Positions 24,856 through 42,243 of a stretch of DNA of 47,591 bases are shown in pieces. The stretch lies in IMG/VR virus record IMGVR_UViG_3300045988_142058; one strand, written 5' to 3'. Source of the DNA: a virus. Taxonomy: Duplodnaviria > Heunggongvirae > Uroviricota > Caudoviricetes. Within the stretch, counting starts at the first letter, position 1. Each line of letters starts with the position of its first letter. The position numbers and the translations under genes were made by a program. The notes beneath the pieces are model-generated. The model saw nothing but the letters and a program-made list of their open reading frames with translations. It was not told where the DNA came from and searched no databases.

Positions 24856-25121
24856 TCATCATCTCCTGCCGCACATACAACCTCACAAAAAACATCAGCG
24901 GAATGTTTCTCCTTGAACGAATGACGCTCAAAACCGCACTCAATATCAGGCGCAAAAACATCCACCACATACGGTCTTTCAGAATGTTTGTTTTCCCAAC
25001 GATAAACCGTAGTGACGTTGAAATGTTTTAACGCTTCACGGAACTCAACGCTGCCCGTCAGGTTTTTTGAGGTCAGGTATTGCAGGAGGTTTTTTACTAC
25101 TTCACGGTCTTGTACTTTCAT
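24852..25121 (-). CDS. Hypothetical protein, first gene behind cassette copy 1
   Basis: 89 aa; ATG at 25121 preceded by cassette GGAG RBS. Confidence 0.45.
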   Translation of the reverse strand: MKVQDREVVKNLLQYLTSKNLTGSVEFREALKHFNVTTVYRWENKHSERPYVVDVFAPDIECGFERHSFKEKHSADVFCEVVCAAGDDE

Positions 25122-25230
25122 CGGGTTATCTCCGGTTTAACCAGGGCGGGTATCGCTCGGTTTCGGGTATAACCATAGGAAATTTTTTCCCACCTGTAAA
25201 GCACTTTTTATATAAATCTATAATTATATA
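25122..25230 (-). promoter_or_regulatory. Promoter-leader cassette copy 1
   Basis: ~109 bp near-identical to copies at 32043..32150 and 40979..41087; putative -35 TTTACA (25195..25200), -10 TATGGT (25172..25177), leader with GGAG RBS. Confidence 0.6.
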
Positions 25231-25233
25231 ATT

Positions 25234-25821
25234 CTATGACACTTGCCAGAGAGCATCATGCAACTGGATACCTCCATTGCACTGGTTGCCCCAGCCATGC
25301 CAGCCATCAGGTAAATCACCGCGAGCAAACAGCTCAATACGAGGAACATCGCCTAACAGCTTTACCAGCTTGTCACGGACCACATCAGGCTTCCGAGAAT
25401 GCTCCAGACGAGGCGATGTAAACGACTGAATGATTCCCGCATCAAGACGTGTCGGTAGTTTGCCTTTCACTGCAAACAAGCAATCTTCACTGTTTGCACG
25501 AGTCATATGCCCCATCCCCATCACCAGCTTATCTGGTTGTCGGCTACCACATTTGTTCCATGTGAAGCCCTTCATGGTCATCAGCCTGAATCCCCATGCT
25601 TTCACCACCAGCAACGCTTCTTCTGGCTGAGTCGGAACCCACCACATGGCCAACAAACACGATTCAGGATTAGCAAGCTGCCAGACAGGAATACGAGCAA
25701 TATCCTCAGCTTTCATCGTTGGATACTTAAAACCAGCGCCACGATTCCCATCCTTACACTTGTCTTTGTATTCCCAGGGGGGATCTGCATAAATCAGATT
25801 AAACAATGCAATTGCCTCCAT
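25234..25821 (-). CDS. MT-A70 family N6-adenine DNA methyltransferase
   Basis: 195 aa; DPPW motif (LIYADPPWEY). Confidence 0.8.
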   Translation of the reverse strand: MEAIALFNLIYADPPWEYKDKCKDGNRGAGFKYPTMKAEDIARIPVWQLANPESCLLAMWWVPTQPEEALLVVKAWGFRLMTMKGFTWNKCGSRQPDKLVMGMGHMTRANSEDCLFAVKGKLPTRLDAGIIQSFTSPRLEHSRKPDVVRDKLVKLLGDVPRIELFARGDLPDGWHGWGNQCNGGIQLHDALWQVS

Positions 25822-30974: not shown

Positions 30975-32042
30975 TCAGGCTTTCAATAGCGATTCTTTCA
31001 GATATCGGGCATCAGCCAGGGCATTTGGAGTAATCTTGCGAACCCATGCATTACGGGTTGGACTCCACTTAAAGGCGCGTGATTTAAGCAGCGAACGAAT
31101 GTTTGCCTCTGGTTTGCCAGGGAAATAAAACAGGATGCGGTTATCCTCTGGATCTATCTCCATAGAAAAGTCGTCGTATTCTTCGCGCTGTGCTCCTGTT
31201 ACAGACTTGACCGATTCAAGCTCCTTAATACGGCTCTGTAGTCGTTTGATCTCGGCGTTATTGTTGCTCAGTGCGTATGAAGGGAATCCGATGCGCCCAC
31301 AGAAATCTCCGGCCAGTAACTCTTTGGCTTCGCTTTCTGTAAACCTGAGATCGATTAATGCAGAAAGCTGCTGTAATTGGTCTTTTTTGTATTTGCGAAT
31401 GGCCTTATTTGCGGCCTTCATTTTGACGTGTGACTTCATGCAGCCTTGCAGCTTACGAAGCAACTTAAATAGCGCATCAGGATCATCAGACGAAATTCCA
31501 TTACGACCAACACCTGCGGCTTTGCTCTCGTAGTGTGATGCTTTACTTTCGCATTCAACAAACGCTTTTCTGAATAACGCATCAGCTTTAGACAAACGGC
31601 GGCGATGGCCTTTCGCGCTATAATGGTCAACTAAAATCGGCTGGCCTAACGGGATCACATCCAACAGGTCATGCGCTCGCTTATGCGCTACCGCACCTTC
31701 TTTTCTGGCTTTTTCTGCACGAGCAATATATCGGGCAAGACGCGCGTTCTGGCGTTCCTGATAGGTGTTTACGTAATCATCTCCGCGCTGCTGCTGTTCA
31801 AGCCATGCTTTACGCAGATCTTCTGTTACGTCCACCAGCTCCGCAGGGATACAACCAGTTTGGGCTTCATAAGAGTAACCATCCTCATAGATACGCCCAT
31901 CGTCTTCAACAAAGAAAAAGGTTTCGTGCTCATCGCTTTTGACCATACGACCATTAACATGGCGTAATAGGTAGCCAGTATCAGTGCTTAACAGGCTGTT
32001 AGGGTTGTTGATCCAGTCAGAAATAATTACTTGTTTATTCAT
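30975..32042 (-). CDS. DUF3560-like protein, first gene behind cassette copy 2
   Basis: 355 aa; start at cassette RBS; family call from memory only. Confidence 0.4.
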   Translation of the reverse strand: MNKQVIISDWINNPNSLLSTDTGYLLRHVNGRMVKSDEHETFFFVEDDGRIYEDGYSYEAQTGCIPAELVDVTEDLRKAWLEQQQRGDDYVNTYQERQNARLARYIARAEKARKEGAVAHKRAHDLLDVIPLGQPILVDHYSAKGHRRRLSKADALFRKAFVECESKASHYESKAAGVGRNGISSDDPDALFKLLRKLQGCMKSHVKMKAANKAIRKYKKDQLQQLSALIDLRFTESEAKELLAGDFCGRIGFPSYALSNNNAEIKRLQSRIKELESVKSVTGAQREEYDDFSMEIDPEDNRILFYFPGKPEANIRSLLKSRAFKWSPTRNAWVRKITPNALADARYLKESLLKA

Positions 32043-32150
32043 CAGATTTCTCCGGTTTAACCAGGGCGGGTATCGCTCGGTTTCGGGTATAACCTTAGGA
32101 AATTTTTTCCCACCTGTAAAGCACTTTTTATATAAATCTATAATTATATA
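32043..32150 (-). promoter_or_regulatory. Promoter-leader cassette copy 2
   Basis: Differs from copy 1 at -10 (TAAGGT) and in ~8 nt next to ATG; lies between Q-like gene and lysis-containing operon. Confidence 0.6.
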
Positions 32151-32211
32151 TTTATAGATTTTCGATGTTCCCGATGTCTACACACCATCAAAACAGCTCA
32201 AAATGACACTT

Positions 32212-34581: not shown

Positions 34582-34596
34582 ACCACGATATGTGGT
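34582..34596. promoter_or_regulatory. Operator ACCAC-gatat-GTGGT in cI/cro intergenic region
   Basis: Perfect inverted half-sites, 5-bp spacer. Confidence 0.6.
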
Positions 34597-34602
34597 ATTA
34601 AA

Positions 34603-34617
34603 ACCACATATCGTGAG
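34603..34617. promoter_or_regulatory. Degenerate operator ACCAC-atatc-GTGAG
   Basis: Adjacent to first operator; right half imperfect. Confidence 0.4.
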
Positions 34618-35864: not shown

Positions 35865-35884
35865 AAGCGGGCTAACGCCCGCTT
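35865..35884 (+). terminator. Hairpin terminator after gene 35486..35860
   Basis: 8-bp stem AAGCGGGC/GCCCGCTT, loop TAAC, then AU-rich sequence. Confidence 0.4.
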
Positions 35885-36010
35885 ATATGATTATAGTTTT
35901 ATATAATTATATAAAACGCTTTTCATCCGCCAAAAAGTTGGTTATGCTTACCTCGTTCTATAAATATAGATTTATAGAATTATATAACCAAACACATGGA
36001 GTCTCGACAA

Positions 36011-39651: not shown

Positions 39652-40187
39652 AATTCCACCATAACTGATAACCACCCTTCAGACACAACCCCCCCTCCCC
39701 CCATACAGGGTGCCCTTTACCGGAGTTCCGGCCCCTTCTCAAAAGCATCAAAAAAAGCTCGAGATCGAGTACCGGAACTCATGCCACCAGATAGCTCCAC
39801 ATCGTTTCCAATGCTTCGCCGCCGTGTGCGCCCTGTGGCCCACAATCATGCCATTGGTCGTCTGATATACCTTCTTCTGCTCATAGAGCACAGGCGAGTT
39901 GTCGCACTCCTGCCTTTCTCAGACTCGACTTAGTTTAGATCGCTGTTCCTGGCTTGCGTCAGCACACTTTCCCCTTGTACGCATACCCGCGCGCCACTTC
40001 GCCCAAAAACACCGAACCCAACGAAGTGGCAAAGACAACGACGCGAGCGTGAGTCTGAAATGGGCACCAGTAAAAAAGGGGTTGCAGGCGCAAAAAGATT
40101 TGATTATCTTTAGACGCAAGAAAGCCGCCCCAATCAAGAGGTGTCTTTTTAAATCCAGCCTACCAAGCAAGATTTAAATTTCAGACT

Positions 40188-40220
40188 GAAAACCGCCCGG
40201 CAAGGCGGTTTTTGTCTTTC
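40188..40220. terminator. Bidirectional terminator downstream of HTH gene
   Basis: AAAACCGCC-cggcaa-GGCGGTTTTT with A-run before and T-run after. Confidence 0.55.
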
Positions 40221-40261: not shown

Positions 40262-40534
40262 TCATTTGATCCCTTGTTCCAATTCTGACGACACTTTAAC
40301 CTTTTCCCATACAAGGGTTTGCAGCCTTAACAGAATCGCGTCTTTATCAAGGTGTGAAAGATCCTTCACCATATCGTCAAACGACAGAACGCGAATGGCC
40401 ATCTCAATGACCCTCGGCGGCTCCCCCTTCTCATATCGCTTATATGTAGCCAACGATATCCCAAATTCTTCGGCGGCTCGCTCCTGCGTCCAGTTCATCC
40501 CACGACGCCATAATTTCAATTCATAACCCGTCAT
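40262..40534 (-). CDS. XRE-family HTH DNA-binding protein
   Basis: Start at MTGYELKLWRRGMNWTQERAAEEFGISLATYKRYEKG with AGGAGG RBS; perfect IR upstream. Confidence 0.55.
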   Translation of the reverse strand: MTGYELKLWRRGMNWTQERAAEEFGISLATYKRYEKGEPPRVIEMAIRVLSFDDMVKDLSHLDKDAILLRLQTLVWEKVKVSSELEQGIK

Positions 40535-40563
40535 AGCACCCTCCTCGCACAATATTAACACTC

Positions 40564-40588
40564 GCAAAGTGTCAAAATGACACTTTGC
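40564..40588. promoter_or_regulatory. Perfect inverted repeat GCAAAGTGTCA-aaa-TGACACTTTGC
   Basis: 11-bp arms, ~25 nt upstream of RBS of HTH gene 40262..40534; no U-run. Confidence 0.4.
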
Positions 40589-40597
40589 GCATTGTGT

Positions 40598-40978
40598 TTA
40601 CTTAACGAGGAATAAAAATGGTTTATTGTTCGGCGGTGTAATCGGGGCTGGCTCGCTTTTGCTCATGCGATCAGTGTACCAAGCCAACTCCTTGTCAAAG
40701 TAAGCCTGATTAAAATAGGCCATGAATGTAGTTTCAAATCCATAACGACCGCTAATACGCAGCATCTGATTGCCGTTCTCTGTTTCCAGATATACCTGGG
40801 CACGTTCCTGATTCTCCTTCAGCCAGGTTAAAGCCTCATCGCATGAGGACACACGATACTCATCATCGTAGCCGTCATCGATGCGGCTTGAGGAAGAACG
40901 GCAAATCACGCCAACAGAACCAGCCAGGATAGTTTGAATTTTAAGGAAAGCGTTTTTGCGGATTTTAATCATGCTCAT
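40598..40978 (-). CDS. Hypothetical protein, first gene behind cassette copy 3
   Basis: 126 aa; ATG at 40978 preceded by cassette RBS. Confidence 0.45.
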   Translation of the reverse strand: MSMIKIRKNAFLKIQTILAGSVGVICRSSSSRIDDGYDDEYRVSSCDEALTWLKENQERAQVYLETENGNQMLRISGRYGFETTFMAYFNQAYFDKELAWYTDRMSKSEPAPITPPNNKPFLFLVK

Positions 40979-41087
40979 CGGGTTATCTCCGGTTTAACCA
41001 GGGCGGGTATCGCTCGGTTTCGGGTATAACCTTAGGAAATTTTTTCCCACCTGTAAAGCACTTTTTATATAAATCTATAATTATATA
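40979..41087 (-). promoter_or_regulatory. Promoter-leader cassette copy 3
   Basis: One substitution relative to copy 1; heads operon 40598..40978 plus HTH gene. Confidence 0.6.
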
Positions 41088-41245
41088 AATAATAGTAACT
41101 GGTGTTTTTTTAGGCGAAGCATTAAACATTTTTGTTTAGCTTATTGGCAAGGTCTTGAAAAAGACATTTCAGCAATGCTATACCATTGAACATGGTATCG
41201 GCTGAATTTTGTAATTAACACATTTTAAACAATTTGAGGTGCCAA

Positions 41246-41530
41246 ATGGCTAAACAAAAATCTGAAATTGATGCTATTCGAGCATTAACAGAAGTAACAA
41301 TTAAAGGTTTTGAGCAGGTTGCTCAGGCATTAGTTGATATGAGAGAAGCTCAGGGAAAAGTCGTACGAGCAACATATAATGGATTAACCTCCTCAGGAAA
41401 ATCTCGCTATGTTGCATCGCTAGTAGAGGAAGTAGGATCACAAGCTGAAGTAAGCCGCATGTTAAATATCACACCAGGGCGCGTTAGCCAGCTTATGAAG
41501 TCCGAAAAAAACCGCAAAAATGGTAAGTAA
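41246..41530 (+). CDS. Putative small HTH DNA-binding protein
   Basis: ATG at 41246 with GAGGT RBS; C-terminal HTH-like GSQAEVSRMLNITPGRVSQLMK; ATACCAT-N5-ATGGTAT upstream. Confidence 0.45.
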   Translation: MAKQKSEIDAIRALTEVTIKGFEQVAQALVDMREAQGKVVRATYNGLTSSGKSRYVASLVEEVGSQAEVSRMLNITPGRVSQLMKSEKNRKNGK

Positions 41531-41535
41531 ATAAG

Positions 41536-41556
41536 TAAGGCCCCAATGGGGCCTTA
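41536..41556. terminator. Hairpin between convergent genes 41246..41530 and higA
   Basis: Perfect 9-bp stem TAAGGCCCC/GGGGCCTTA, 3-nt loop. Confidence 0.45.
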
Positions 41557-41563
41557 CATTATG

Positions 41564-41863
41564 TTAGACATGGAACGCTACTCGCTTTCCTGTAGGAAGC
41601 TCAACATCCAGGCTTAATTTGCCTCCCATAGCTTCAACGTAACGCTTTAATGTCGCCAGCTTTAAATCATTTCCGCGCTGCTCCAGCTTTGTTACTGCTG
41701 GCTGGCTTATACCCATCGCCTCAGCAACCTGTTTTTGTGATAACTGGAGTTCTTCACGCATCATCTGCAAGCCGACCTCAAGAATCATCTCATCTGCCAT
41801 TTCTTTAATTCGCGCCTGGCTTTCAGGTGAACGGCTGGCAATCACCTCATCTAATGTTCTCAT
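41564..41863 (-). CDS. HigA-like antitoxin (XRE HTH)
   Basis: 99 aa; HTH LSQKQVAEAMGISQPAVTKLEQ; downstream of and coupled to toxin gene. Confidence 0.65.
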   Translation of the reverse strand: MRTLDEVIASRSPESQARIKEMADEMILEVGLQMMREELQLSQKQVAEAMGISQPAVTKLEQRGNDLKLATLKRYVEAMGGKLSLDVELPTGKRVAFHV

Positions 41864-42210
41864 TACTTGCTCTCCAGTGTGTTCAGATGTGCTGCAAACT
41901 CATCCTCAGCTATACGCACCAGTTTTTCATAAAACCGTTTATCGTTACTTTTGTCTCCTGCACAAAGAACGATGGCCCGGCGAATCGGATCGAACGCATA
42001 AAAGGCTCTTATCGGACGGCCAGAAAACTGAACGCGAAGCTCTTTCATATTTTTGTACCGAGAACCTTTTACGGTATCGGCATATGGCCTGGGTAACTCA
42101 GGTCCGTAAACCTGTAGCTTTTTCAAATCAGCCAAAACCTTTTCCTGAAGAGCGTCTTCTTGCTCATTTAGCCAGTCGTCAAATCGCTGGCTAAAAAGTA
42201 CCGTCCACAT
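41863..42210 (-). CDS. RelE/HigB-like toxin (phage Gp49-like)
   Basis: Start at ATG 42210 (AGGA RBS); toxin-first gene order. Confidence 0.6.
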   Translation of the reverse strand: MWTVLFSQRFDDWLNEQEDALQEKVLADLKKLQVYGPELPRPYADTVKGSRYKNMKELRVQFSGRPIRAFYAFDPIRRAIVLCAGDKSNDKRFYEKLVRIAEDEFAAHLNTLESK

Positions 42211-42243
42211 GCTCAATCCTATAACCTGTAGTTTATATCACTA

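Follow-up and report, generated by a model that had tools for sequence, protein, structure and literature searches.

The inverted repeat upstream of a small gene of the XRE helix-turn-helix (HTH) family in an E. coli phage-plasmid is quite probably the autoregulatory operator of the 90-amino-acid protein encoded by that gene. Comparison of the sequences leads us to infer that the HTH protein would bind the repeat, and do so as a dimer, that the site lies in the promoter of the HTH gene and that the outcome would be repression. As far as sequence can tell, the palindrome has the property looked for in an operator: it is conserved in its sequence, beside the regulator gene, across diverged relatives. 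Autorepression by a small XRE repressor acting on a promoter palindrome is a textbook mechanism. Modestly new is an operator signature, (A/T)AAAGTG-N9-CACTTT(A/T), for the widespread family phrog_6962 of "unknown function", members of which are carried by phage-plasmids, genomic islands and lytic phages of enterobacteria; with this signature the phrog_6962 regulon can be annotated. A literature search with the half-site sequences returned unrelated primer lists only and no description of this signature.

The window, i.e. the whole stretch of 47,591 nucleotides that was analysed, corresponds to a non-mobilizable E. coli phage-plasmid of approximately 48 kb, which carries a P2-like contractile tail, an IncFII-type RepA, ParA and several toxin-antitoxin pairs. 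The region of the repeat is 100 % identical to NZ_CP028194. Plasmids carrying the element occur in 72 of 5,426 complete E. coli genomes, among them that of ATCC 25922, whose plasmid of 48.5 kb is 98.3 % identical to the window in the region of the repeat; the element has also been isolated as the Yersinia phages vB_YpM_39/41/44. PADLOC gave no known defence system. The features discussed below are, in the order in which they lie on the minus strand:

40975-41091, minus strand: promoter/5'UTR module heading the third cassette, with two further near-identical copies in the window, carrying the AT-rich motif TATAAATCTATAATTATATA
40598-40978, minus strand: gene of a 126-amino-acid orphan protein (phrog_8090), first gene of the third cassette
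40563-40589, unstranded: inverted repeat, the proposed operator, with perfect 12-bp arms and a 3-nt spacer, CGCAAAGTGTCA aaa TGACACTTTGCG
40567-40585, within the repeat: family-conserved core AAGTG-N9-CACTT
40552-40560, minus strand: TGtTAATAT, candidate extended -10 element of a promoter belonging to the HTH gene itself, with a spacing conserved in the subgroup
40540-40547, minus strand: Shine-Dalgarno (SD) region of the HTH gene, CGAGGAGG, read from the sequence
40262-40534, minus strand: gene of the 90-amino-acid XRE-family HTH protein, the proposed binder of the repeat (Pfam HTH_3, phrog_6962)
40187-40214, unstranded: bidirectional intrinsic terminator closing the HTH gene

An earlier note on this DNA had described a perfect inverted repeat with 11-bp arms, GCAAAGTGTCA-AAA-TGACACTTTGC, at positions 40564-40588. 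Exactly this sequence was read there, and the perfect arms reach one pair beyond it, giving 12 bp and a repeat of 40563-40589. The note had also placed the repeat between the first gene of cassette 3 and the ribosome-binding site of the HTH gene, which agrees with the order read on the minus strand: stop codon of the 126-amino-acid gene (40600-40598), repeat, SD GGAGG (40544-40540) and ATG of the HTH gene (40534). When the whole window was shuffled 200 times with dinucleotide composition preserved, a shuffle contained on average 0.065 perfect inverted repeats with loops of 3-8 nt and arms of 11 bp or longer, and 0.005 with arms of 12 bp or longer. The repeat is single-copy in the window even with three mismatches allowed, and no match was found in 100 shuffles.

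The 90-amino-acid protein belongs to the XRE / Cro-C1 family, as the earlier note had supposed. It matches HTH_3 (PF01381) above the cut-off (29.8 bits, cut-off 23, residues 6-40) and HTH_31 (27.6 bits, cut-off 27), these two together with HTH_19 and MqsA_antitoxin being its only Pfam matches at E ≤ 0.01, and it matches phrog_6962 at 1.5e-45. The AlphaFold2 (AF2) model (pLDDT 83.6) has five helices (residues 3-12, 17-24, 28-36, 41-59 and 64-86), which form the standard XRE bundle with its helix-turn-helix followed by two long C-terminal helices; judged by the model, these last two could mediate dimerisation. In a profile search against sequences of solved structures the best match was Aca2 (7ezy, E = 4e-4), which covers residues 1-68 and takes in the MT.YEL N-terminus; MqsA and HipB came next. 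Foldseek matched the model with SinR, HipB, HigA, P2 C, MqsA, Aca2 and Aca1, none of them with E < 1e-3 and with probabilities of 0.9-0.99 for SinR, HipB, P2 C and Aca1. All seven are dimeric palindrome-binding repressors, which act mostly at their own promoters.

Loci encoding HTH homologues with 40-100 % amino acid identity were taken from GTDB genomes, IMG/VR and assemblies found via the protein database. The sequence AAGTG-N9-CACTT, with at most one mismatch, begins 25-70 nt before the ATG in 30 of the 45 homologue loci, compared with 0.05 loci expected from the background rate in the same 45 loci. The earlier note had left open whether the repeat was a dimer-binding operator or an RNA processing hairpin; this conservation by sequence supports the former, and specific support for the latter was not obtained. 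Site-bearing homologues occur in more than ten enterobacterial genera, on phage-plasmids, at chromosomal loci and in lytic Lastavirus phages, the hosts being Serratia, Enterobacter, Citrobacter, Erwinia, Yersinia, Rahnella, Providencia, Hafnia, Lelliottia, Scandinavium, Salmonella, Klebsiella and Yokenella. From their sequences, the neighbours of the chromosomal homologues look like island genes (DUF932, antirestriction, methyltransferase and toxin-antitoxin pairs).

The gene upstream of the site varies and the HTH gene, mostly monocistronic among the homologous loci, is its sole constant partner; repeat, promoter, SD and HTH gene thus act together as one self-contained unit. The 126-amino-acid gene is found only in the closest relatives; neither L106-L109 nor any of the distant loci has it before the HTH gene. 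Its place in L106-L109 is taken by a divergent gene or a HigA-like gene, with repeat, SD and HTH gene staying joined; in L106, L107 and L109 the AAGTG core has decayed to TAGCG/AAGAG.

Among 39 distinct promoter-proximal sites the GTG/CAC triplets are kept in 37-39, A/T tracts make up the flanks, and only A or T occurs at the five central positions. The inner half-sites fall into the classes GTGTCA, GTGCA, GTGCC, GTGAC and GCGCA, the last replacing GTGCA, and these sort with protein subgroups whose recognition helices begin differently (ISLAT, VCLRS/KCLRT, IGLRT, ISLRT and VSRRT). Such matching of half-site classes with recognition-helix subgroups would be the pattern expected of co-evolution between a protein and its operator. 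Several loci have two sites approximately 57 bp apart, in which they resemble multi-operator repressors.

Some loci have been rearranged around the site. In two IMG/VR variants whose HTH proteins are 98-99 % identical to that of the window (L059 and L061), an insertion of 566 bp parts the repeat from the HTH gene, and both are kept; the insertion (in the region 2368-3000 of L059, and in L061) holds a gene for 141 amino acids on the opposite strand, directly after the TAATAT element. In L111 (1953-2356) the HTH gene is truncated after approximately 43 codons, the repeat and the 126-amino-acid gene being intact, and a gene for an IS110-family transposase, probably an insertion, lies approximately 270 nt downstream. 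In L009-L011 and L017-L019 a second copy of the site is found 826-1121 nt upstream of the HTH gene, beside a terminator and a conserved GC-rich element.

The position of the site relative to the putative promoter of the HTH gene is also conserved. In the window, TGtTAATAT begins exactly 6 nt past the CACTT half-site, from which the repeat would span approximately -40 to -22 of the HTH promoter, with a predicted transcription start near 40545. The sequence TGnTA(A/G)nnT is found at a constant 6 nt after CACTT in six diverged sequences of the phage-plasmid subgroup, including the window (TGtTAATAT, TGtTAAAAT, TGaTAAAAT, TGaTAAATT, TGtTAGCGT and TGtTAGCAT), while the neighbouring sequence and the distance to the SD have diverged; the repeat lies 51-60 nt before the ATG in this subgroup. 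Distant homologues have a TATAAT-like hexamer (TAAAAT, TATAAT or TAGAAT) directly against the left half-site, so that there the site covers the start region. Conserved -10-like elements thus adjoin the site in both subgroups, and a standard -35/-10 scan called no promoter in the window at 40552-40560. The proposed HTH promoter has no usable -35 element and would give a leader of only about 11 nt. A canonical promoter using the TTGACA inside the repeat was considered and rejected, the distances being 12 nt to TAATAT and 15 nt to TATTGT; the TGnTA element is the better candidate.

According to the mechanism we propose, an HTH dimer would bind the two AAAGTG(T)CA half-sites of an operator lying over the -35 region of a weak HTH promoter of the extended -10 type, with TGtTAATAT 6 nt downstream. 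Because the site overlies the -35 region, binding would shut the HTH gene's own promoter. The bound protein would probably also impede polymerases coming from the 126-amino-acid gene; the module at 40975-41091 is the likely source of read-through transcripts crossing the repeat. The outcome would be negative autoregulation of the HTH protein, and repeat, promoter, SD and HTH gene would move among mobile elements as one unit, independent of the upstream gene.

Neither the window nor the complete Salmonella relative NZ_LN890526 contains a second full site; that which precedes the HTH gene is the sole one. Since its only full site in the phage-plasmid is its own, the HTH protein looks like a pure autoregulator there, or else has its other targets in the host. 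The 8-mer AAGTGTCA has four occurrences in the window; the repeat itself accounts for two, and the others (25237-25244 and 32204-32211, minus strand) immediately precede the promoter modules of cassettes 1 and 2. The copy at 32204-32211 has 15 nt (AAAGTGTCATTTTGA) in common with the repeat. Neither of these half-sites is conserved in the Salmonella relative plasmid.

In a reverse search with the exact palindrome in viral contigs, 11 of the 32 matches came from the HTH family and the remainder had no HTH homologue nearby. Approximately 20 other IMG/VR contigs contain the exact palindrome AAAGTGTCA-N3-TGACACTTT and no detectable HTH homologue, and two contigs have four copies each (TAAAGTGTCATWATGACACTTTA; L097 at 198, 4836, 11618 and 12550, L099 at 4616, 7640, 10495 and 14330). 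The sequences of these four-copy contigs suggest that another regulator may use the same site.

A palindrome in DNA is also a potential hairpin in RNA, and a role of this kind, compatible with an operator, may be tentatively proposed, although we regard it as unlikely. The repeat would be the apex of a long hairpin in the bicistronic transcript of the cassette, sequestering the SD of the HTH gene, and the base of the hairpin would be formed by one further element:

40606-40612, minus strand: UUCCUCG, in the last codons of the 126-amino-acid gene, complementary to CGAGGAG of the HTH SD

Translation of the HTH protein from read-through mRNA would then be coupled to ribosomes finishing the 126-amino-acid gene, or would be kept silent, and the HTH protein might bind the hairpin too, as Aca2 is reported to do with a repeat in the 5'UTR. 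The fold of the 101-nt RNA supports this proposal: it has a free energy of -35.7 kcal/mol (z = -4.67, none of 200 shuffles being as stable), and every base of the SD pairs with the 3' end of the upstream open reading frame. When the flanks only were shuffled and the repeat was held fixed, z was -3.0 for the window (2 of 300 shuffles) and -3.4 for the Klebsiella relative L103 (1 of 300). The extra helix was, however, not significant in L104, which has the 126-amino-acid gene, or in L063, L108 and L106, which lack it (z from +0.7 to -1.0), the flank helix lacking significance in the Salmonella, Yokenella and Citrobacter relatives. Moreover, since the anti-SD is coding sequence, the encoded protein constrains its composition too. 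The Rfam 15 covariance models gave no match at the repeat even at E ≤ 1.

The mismatches in the arms bear directly on the choice between RNA and DNA. Symmetric changes in a palindrome are expected of an RNA stem and of a dimer operator alike, and covariation, uninformative for a palindrome, was therefore dropped as a discriminator and replaced by the ratio of A·C to G·U mismatches. A·C mismatches break an RNA helix and G·U mismatches do not. Over the family there are 16 mismatches of the A·C type and 7 of the G·U type, i.e. pairs that an RNA helix tolerates are not favoured, and in L111 an A·C in the middle of the arm is left without compensation. In addition, the sequence of the repeat, beyond its capacity for pairing, is kept where the upstream gene is wholly different. 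A hairpin in RNA is thus possible, at rather low probability, as an additional layer, not as the reason for the existence of the palindrome.

The stable 12-bp stem straight after the stop codon of the upstream gene could also be read as an intrinsic terminator that acts partially, or as a stabiliser of the 3' end of the 126-amino-acid mRNA, which would lower the HTH protein below the upstream protein; in L059 and L061 the repeat even lies between convergent genes, the classical position of a terminator. We consider this very unlikely. The earlier note had pointed to the absence of a U-run and had judged the repeat not to be a terminator, which is right for the sense strand: 3' of the hairpin the minus strand reads GAGUGUUAAUAUUGUG. 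An intrinsic (Rho-independent) terminator on this strand was accordingly rejected, the stem being present and the sense tail having no U-run. The terminator scan found only the plus strand, antisense to both genes, weakly terminator-like, with the tail CATTGTGTTT. Most homologous loci have no co-oriented upstream gene and yet keep the site, right after a -10-like hexamer; conservation of GTG/CAC would be left unexplained; and a true terminator is found 350 nt further on, at 40187-40214.

Binding of the site by another protein, or a function of it in recombination or as a cassette boundary, is extremely unlikely, although several observations fit such a reading. Breaks in the homology between variants frequently coincide with an edge of the repeat, L061 has the 3-nt centre of the palindrome flipped (AAA in the sense orientation, not TTT), and parts of the repeat recur in front of other cassettes, the 15-nt AAAGTGTCATTTTGA upstream of cassette 2 and the 8-mer AAGTGTCA upstream of cassette 1. 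Island loci, furthermore, hold toxin-antitoxin modules between two copies of the site; these are RelE/HigB-like toxins with HTH antitoxins in L009-L011 and L017-L019, where the sequences look as if the modules had been inserted between two operators which in other loci are 57 bp apart. However, breaks at the edge of the repeat are also expected from a mobile unit of operator, promoter and gene, the extra half-sites are not conserved in the Salmonella relative, and no recombinase is linked to the site, the HTH gene being the only gene consistently found with it.

The proposed operator of the HTH protein has much in common with those of the XRE/Cro-C1 autorepressors (controller C proteins of restriction-modification systems, HipB, HigA, MqsA, SinR and C of phage P2), which are also the top fold and profile matches of the protein. 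Shared are a small HTH_3 protein, a perfect or near-perfect palindrome with an AT-rich centre placed over the regulator's own core promoter elements (here putative) and, in some loci, two sites. The half-site AAAGTG(N)CA and its spacing differ from those known for these repressors; the site of HipB is TATCC-N8-GGATA and that of MqsA ACCT-N2-4-AGGT. The C-terminal half of the HTH protein consists, in the AF2 model, of two long helices, unlike the dimerisation domains of these proteins, and the HTH gene has no consistently linked partner such as a toxin or methyltransferase/endonuclease. A toxin-antitoxin pair of the HigA/MqsA/HipB type was considered and rejected, the 126-amino-acid partner being missing from most loci and from L106-L109 and matching no toxin family in Pfam, NCBIfam or PADLOC. 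As it has no obligate partner, the HTH protein is not an antitoxin.

Resemblance to the acr-aca operons is found in the profile match with Aca2 and in the gene order of the window, where the regulator follows a small orphan gene on a mobile element. Aca proteins repress via inverted repeats in promoters, for which DNA binding and repression have been reported (PMC6765145), and the same 2019 paper on Aca2 raised a post-transcriptional role of the hairpin of the 5'UTR repeat only as a possibility. Binding of Aca2 and Aca1 to the RNA form of their repeats is reported in a further article (PMC13551039). The core of the Aca2 repeat is TTCG with N6 or N8 spacing, TTCG-N6/8-CGAA (PMC6765145), and the domain assigned to Aca2 is DUF1870 (PMC9410906). 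Aca2 has 116-125 amino acids and a beta-containing dimerisation domain, whereas the HTH protein has 90 and is all-helical; Aca2 repeats lie upstream of the first (acr) gene, whereas the present repeat lies between two genes and has the core AAGTG-N9-CACTT. Most HTH homologues stand alone, unlike the genes of acr-aca operons, and the 126-amino-acid protein resembles nothing known. Membership of the Aca2 family was rejected, there being no DUF1870 match in Pfam at E ≤ 0.01 and the size, C-terminal domain and repeat core all being different.

RstR of CTXphi is likewise a small XRE repressor on a mobile element, and the HTH protein is weakly similar to it: residues 10-74 are 31 % identical in tblastn, and the NCBIfam model phage_RstR is matched at E = 2.6e-8, with 34 bits, which is far under the family cut-off of 80. 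However, the genomic context and the operators are unlike.

The cassette to which the earlier note had assigned the repeat is real. Three leftward gene groups are each headed by a near-identical module of approximately 115 bp, comprising promoter and 5'UTR and extending up to the ATG, on the minus strand at 25118-25230, 32039-32150 and 40975-41091; the 126-amino-acid gene comes first after the third. The parts of the module are the AT-rich palindromic motif TATAAATCTATAATTATATA, a promoter-like pair TTTACA-17-TAAGGT, a leader of approximately 60 nt, an SD and the ATG. The shared sequence suggests that the three groups may be co-regulated operons. The same three modules are present in a Salmonella relative (L114 30364, 38174 and 45574).

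The motif TATAAATCTATAATTATATA and its variants occur at many intergenic positions, clustered beside the ParA gene:

25211, 26353, 30922, 32131, 35884-35984, 36673 and 41068 of the window, and 33280-34096 of L114: motif TATAAATCTATAATTATATA or variants

Possibly the motif is bound by a partition or global regulator protein and is centromere as well as operator.

The 126-amino-acid protein has no match in Pfam, NCBIfam or PADLOC, and its homologues, as found by homologue search, are confined to this group of phage-plasmids. Its AF2 model (pLDDT 77.5) has an alpha/beta fold with no convincing match in the PDB or BFVD, and PHROGs, the homologue search, the model and Foldseek against these two databases together gave no usable function. 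A more far-reaching reading would make the HTH protein an Aca-like anti-defence regulator acting on both DNA and RNA, at its own promoter and on the SD-sequestering hairpin, the 126-amino-acid protein a new early anti-defence factor and the three gene groups co-regulated "establishment" cassettes; we find this very unlikely.

Next to the unit, at 41564-42216, lie a gene for a RelE/ParE-type toxin and an adjoining gene for an HTH antitoxin, and a 10-bp GC-rich bidirectional terminator (41535-41557) is located between this pair and a gene for 94 amino acids (41246-41530). The longest perfect inverted repeat in the window, with arms of 13 bp, is found elsewhere (34584-34615, CACGATATGTGGT attaaa ACCACATATCGTG), inside a gene for an HTH (cI-like) protein of 220 amino acids, as located by transfer of coordinates from the annotated plasmid.
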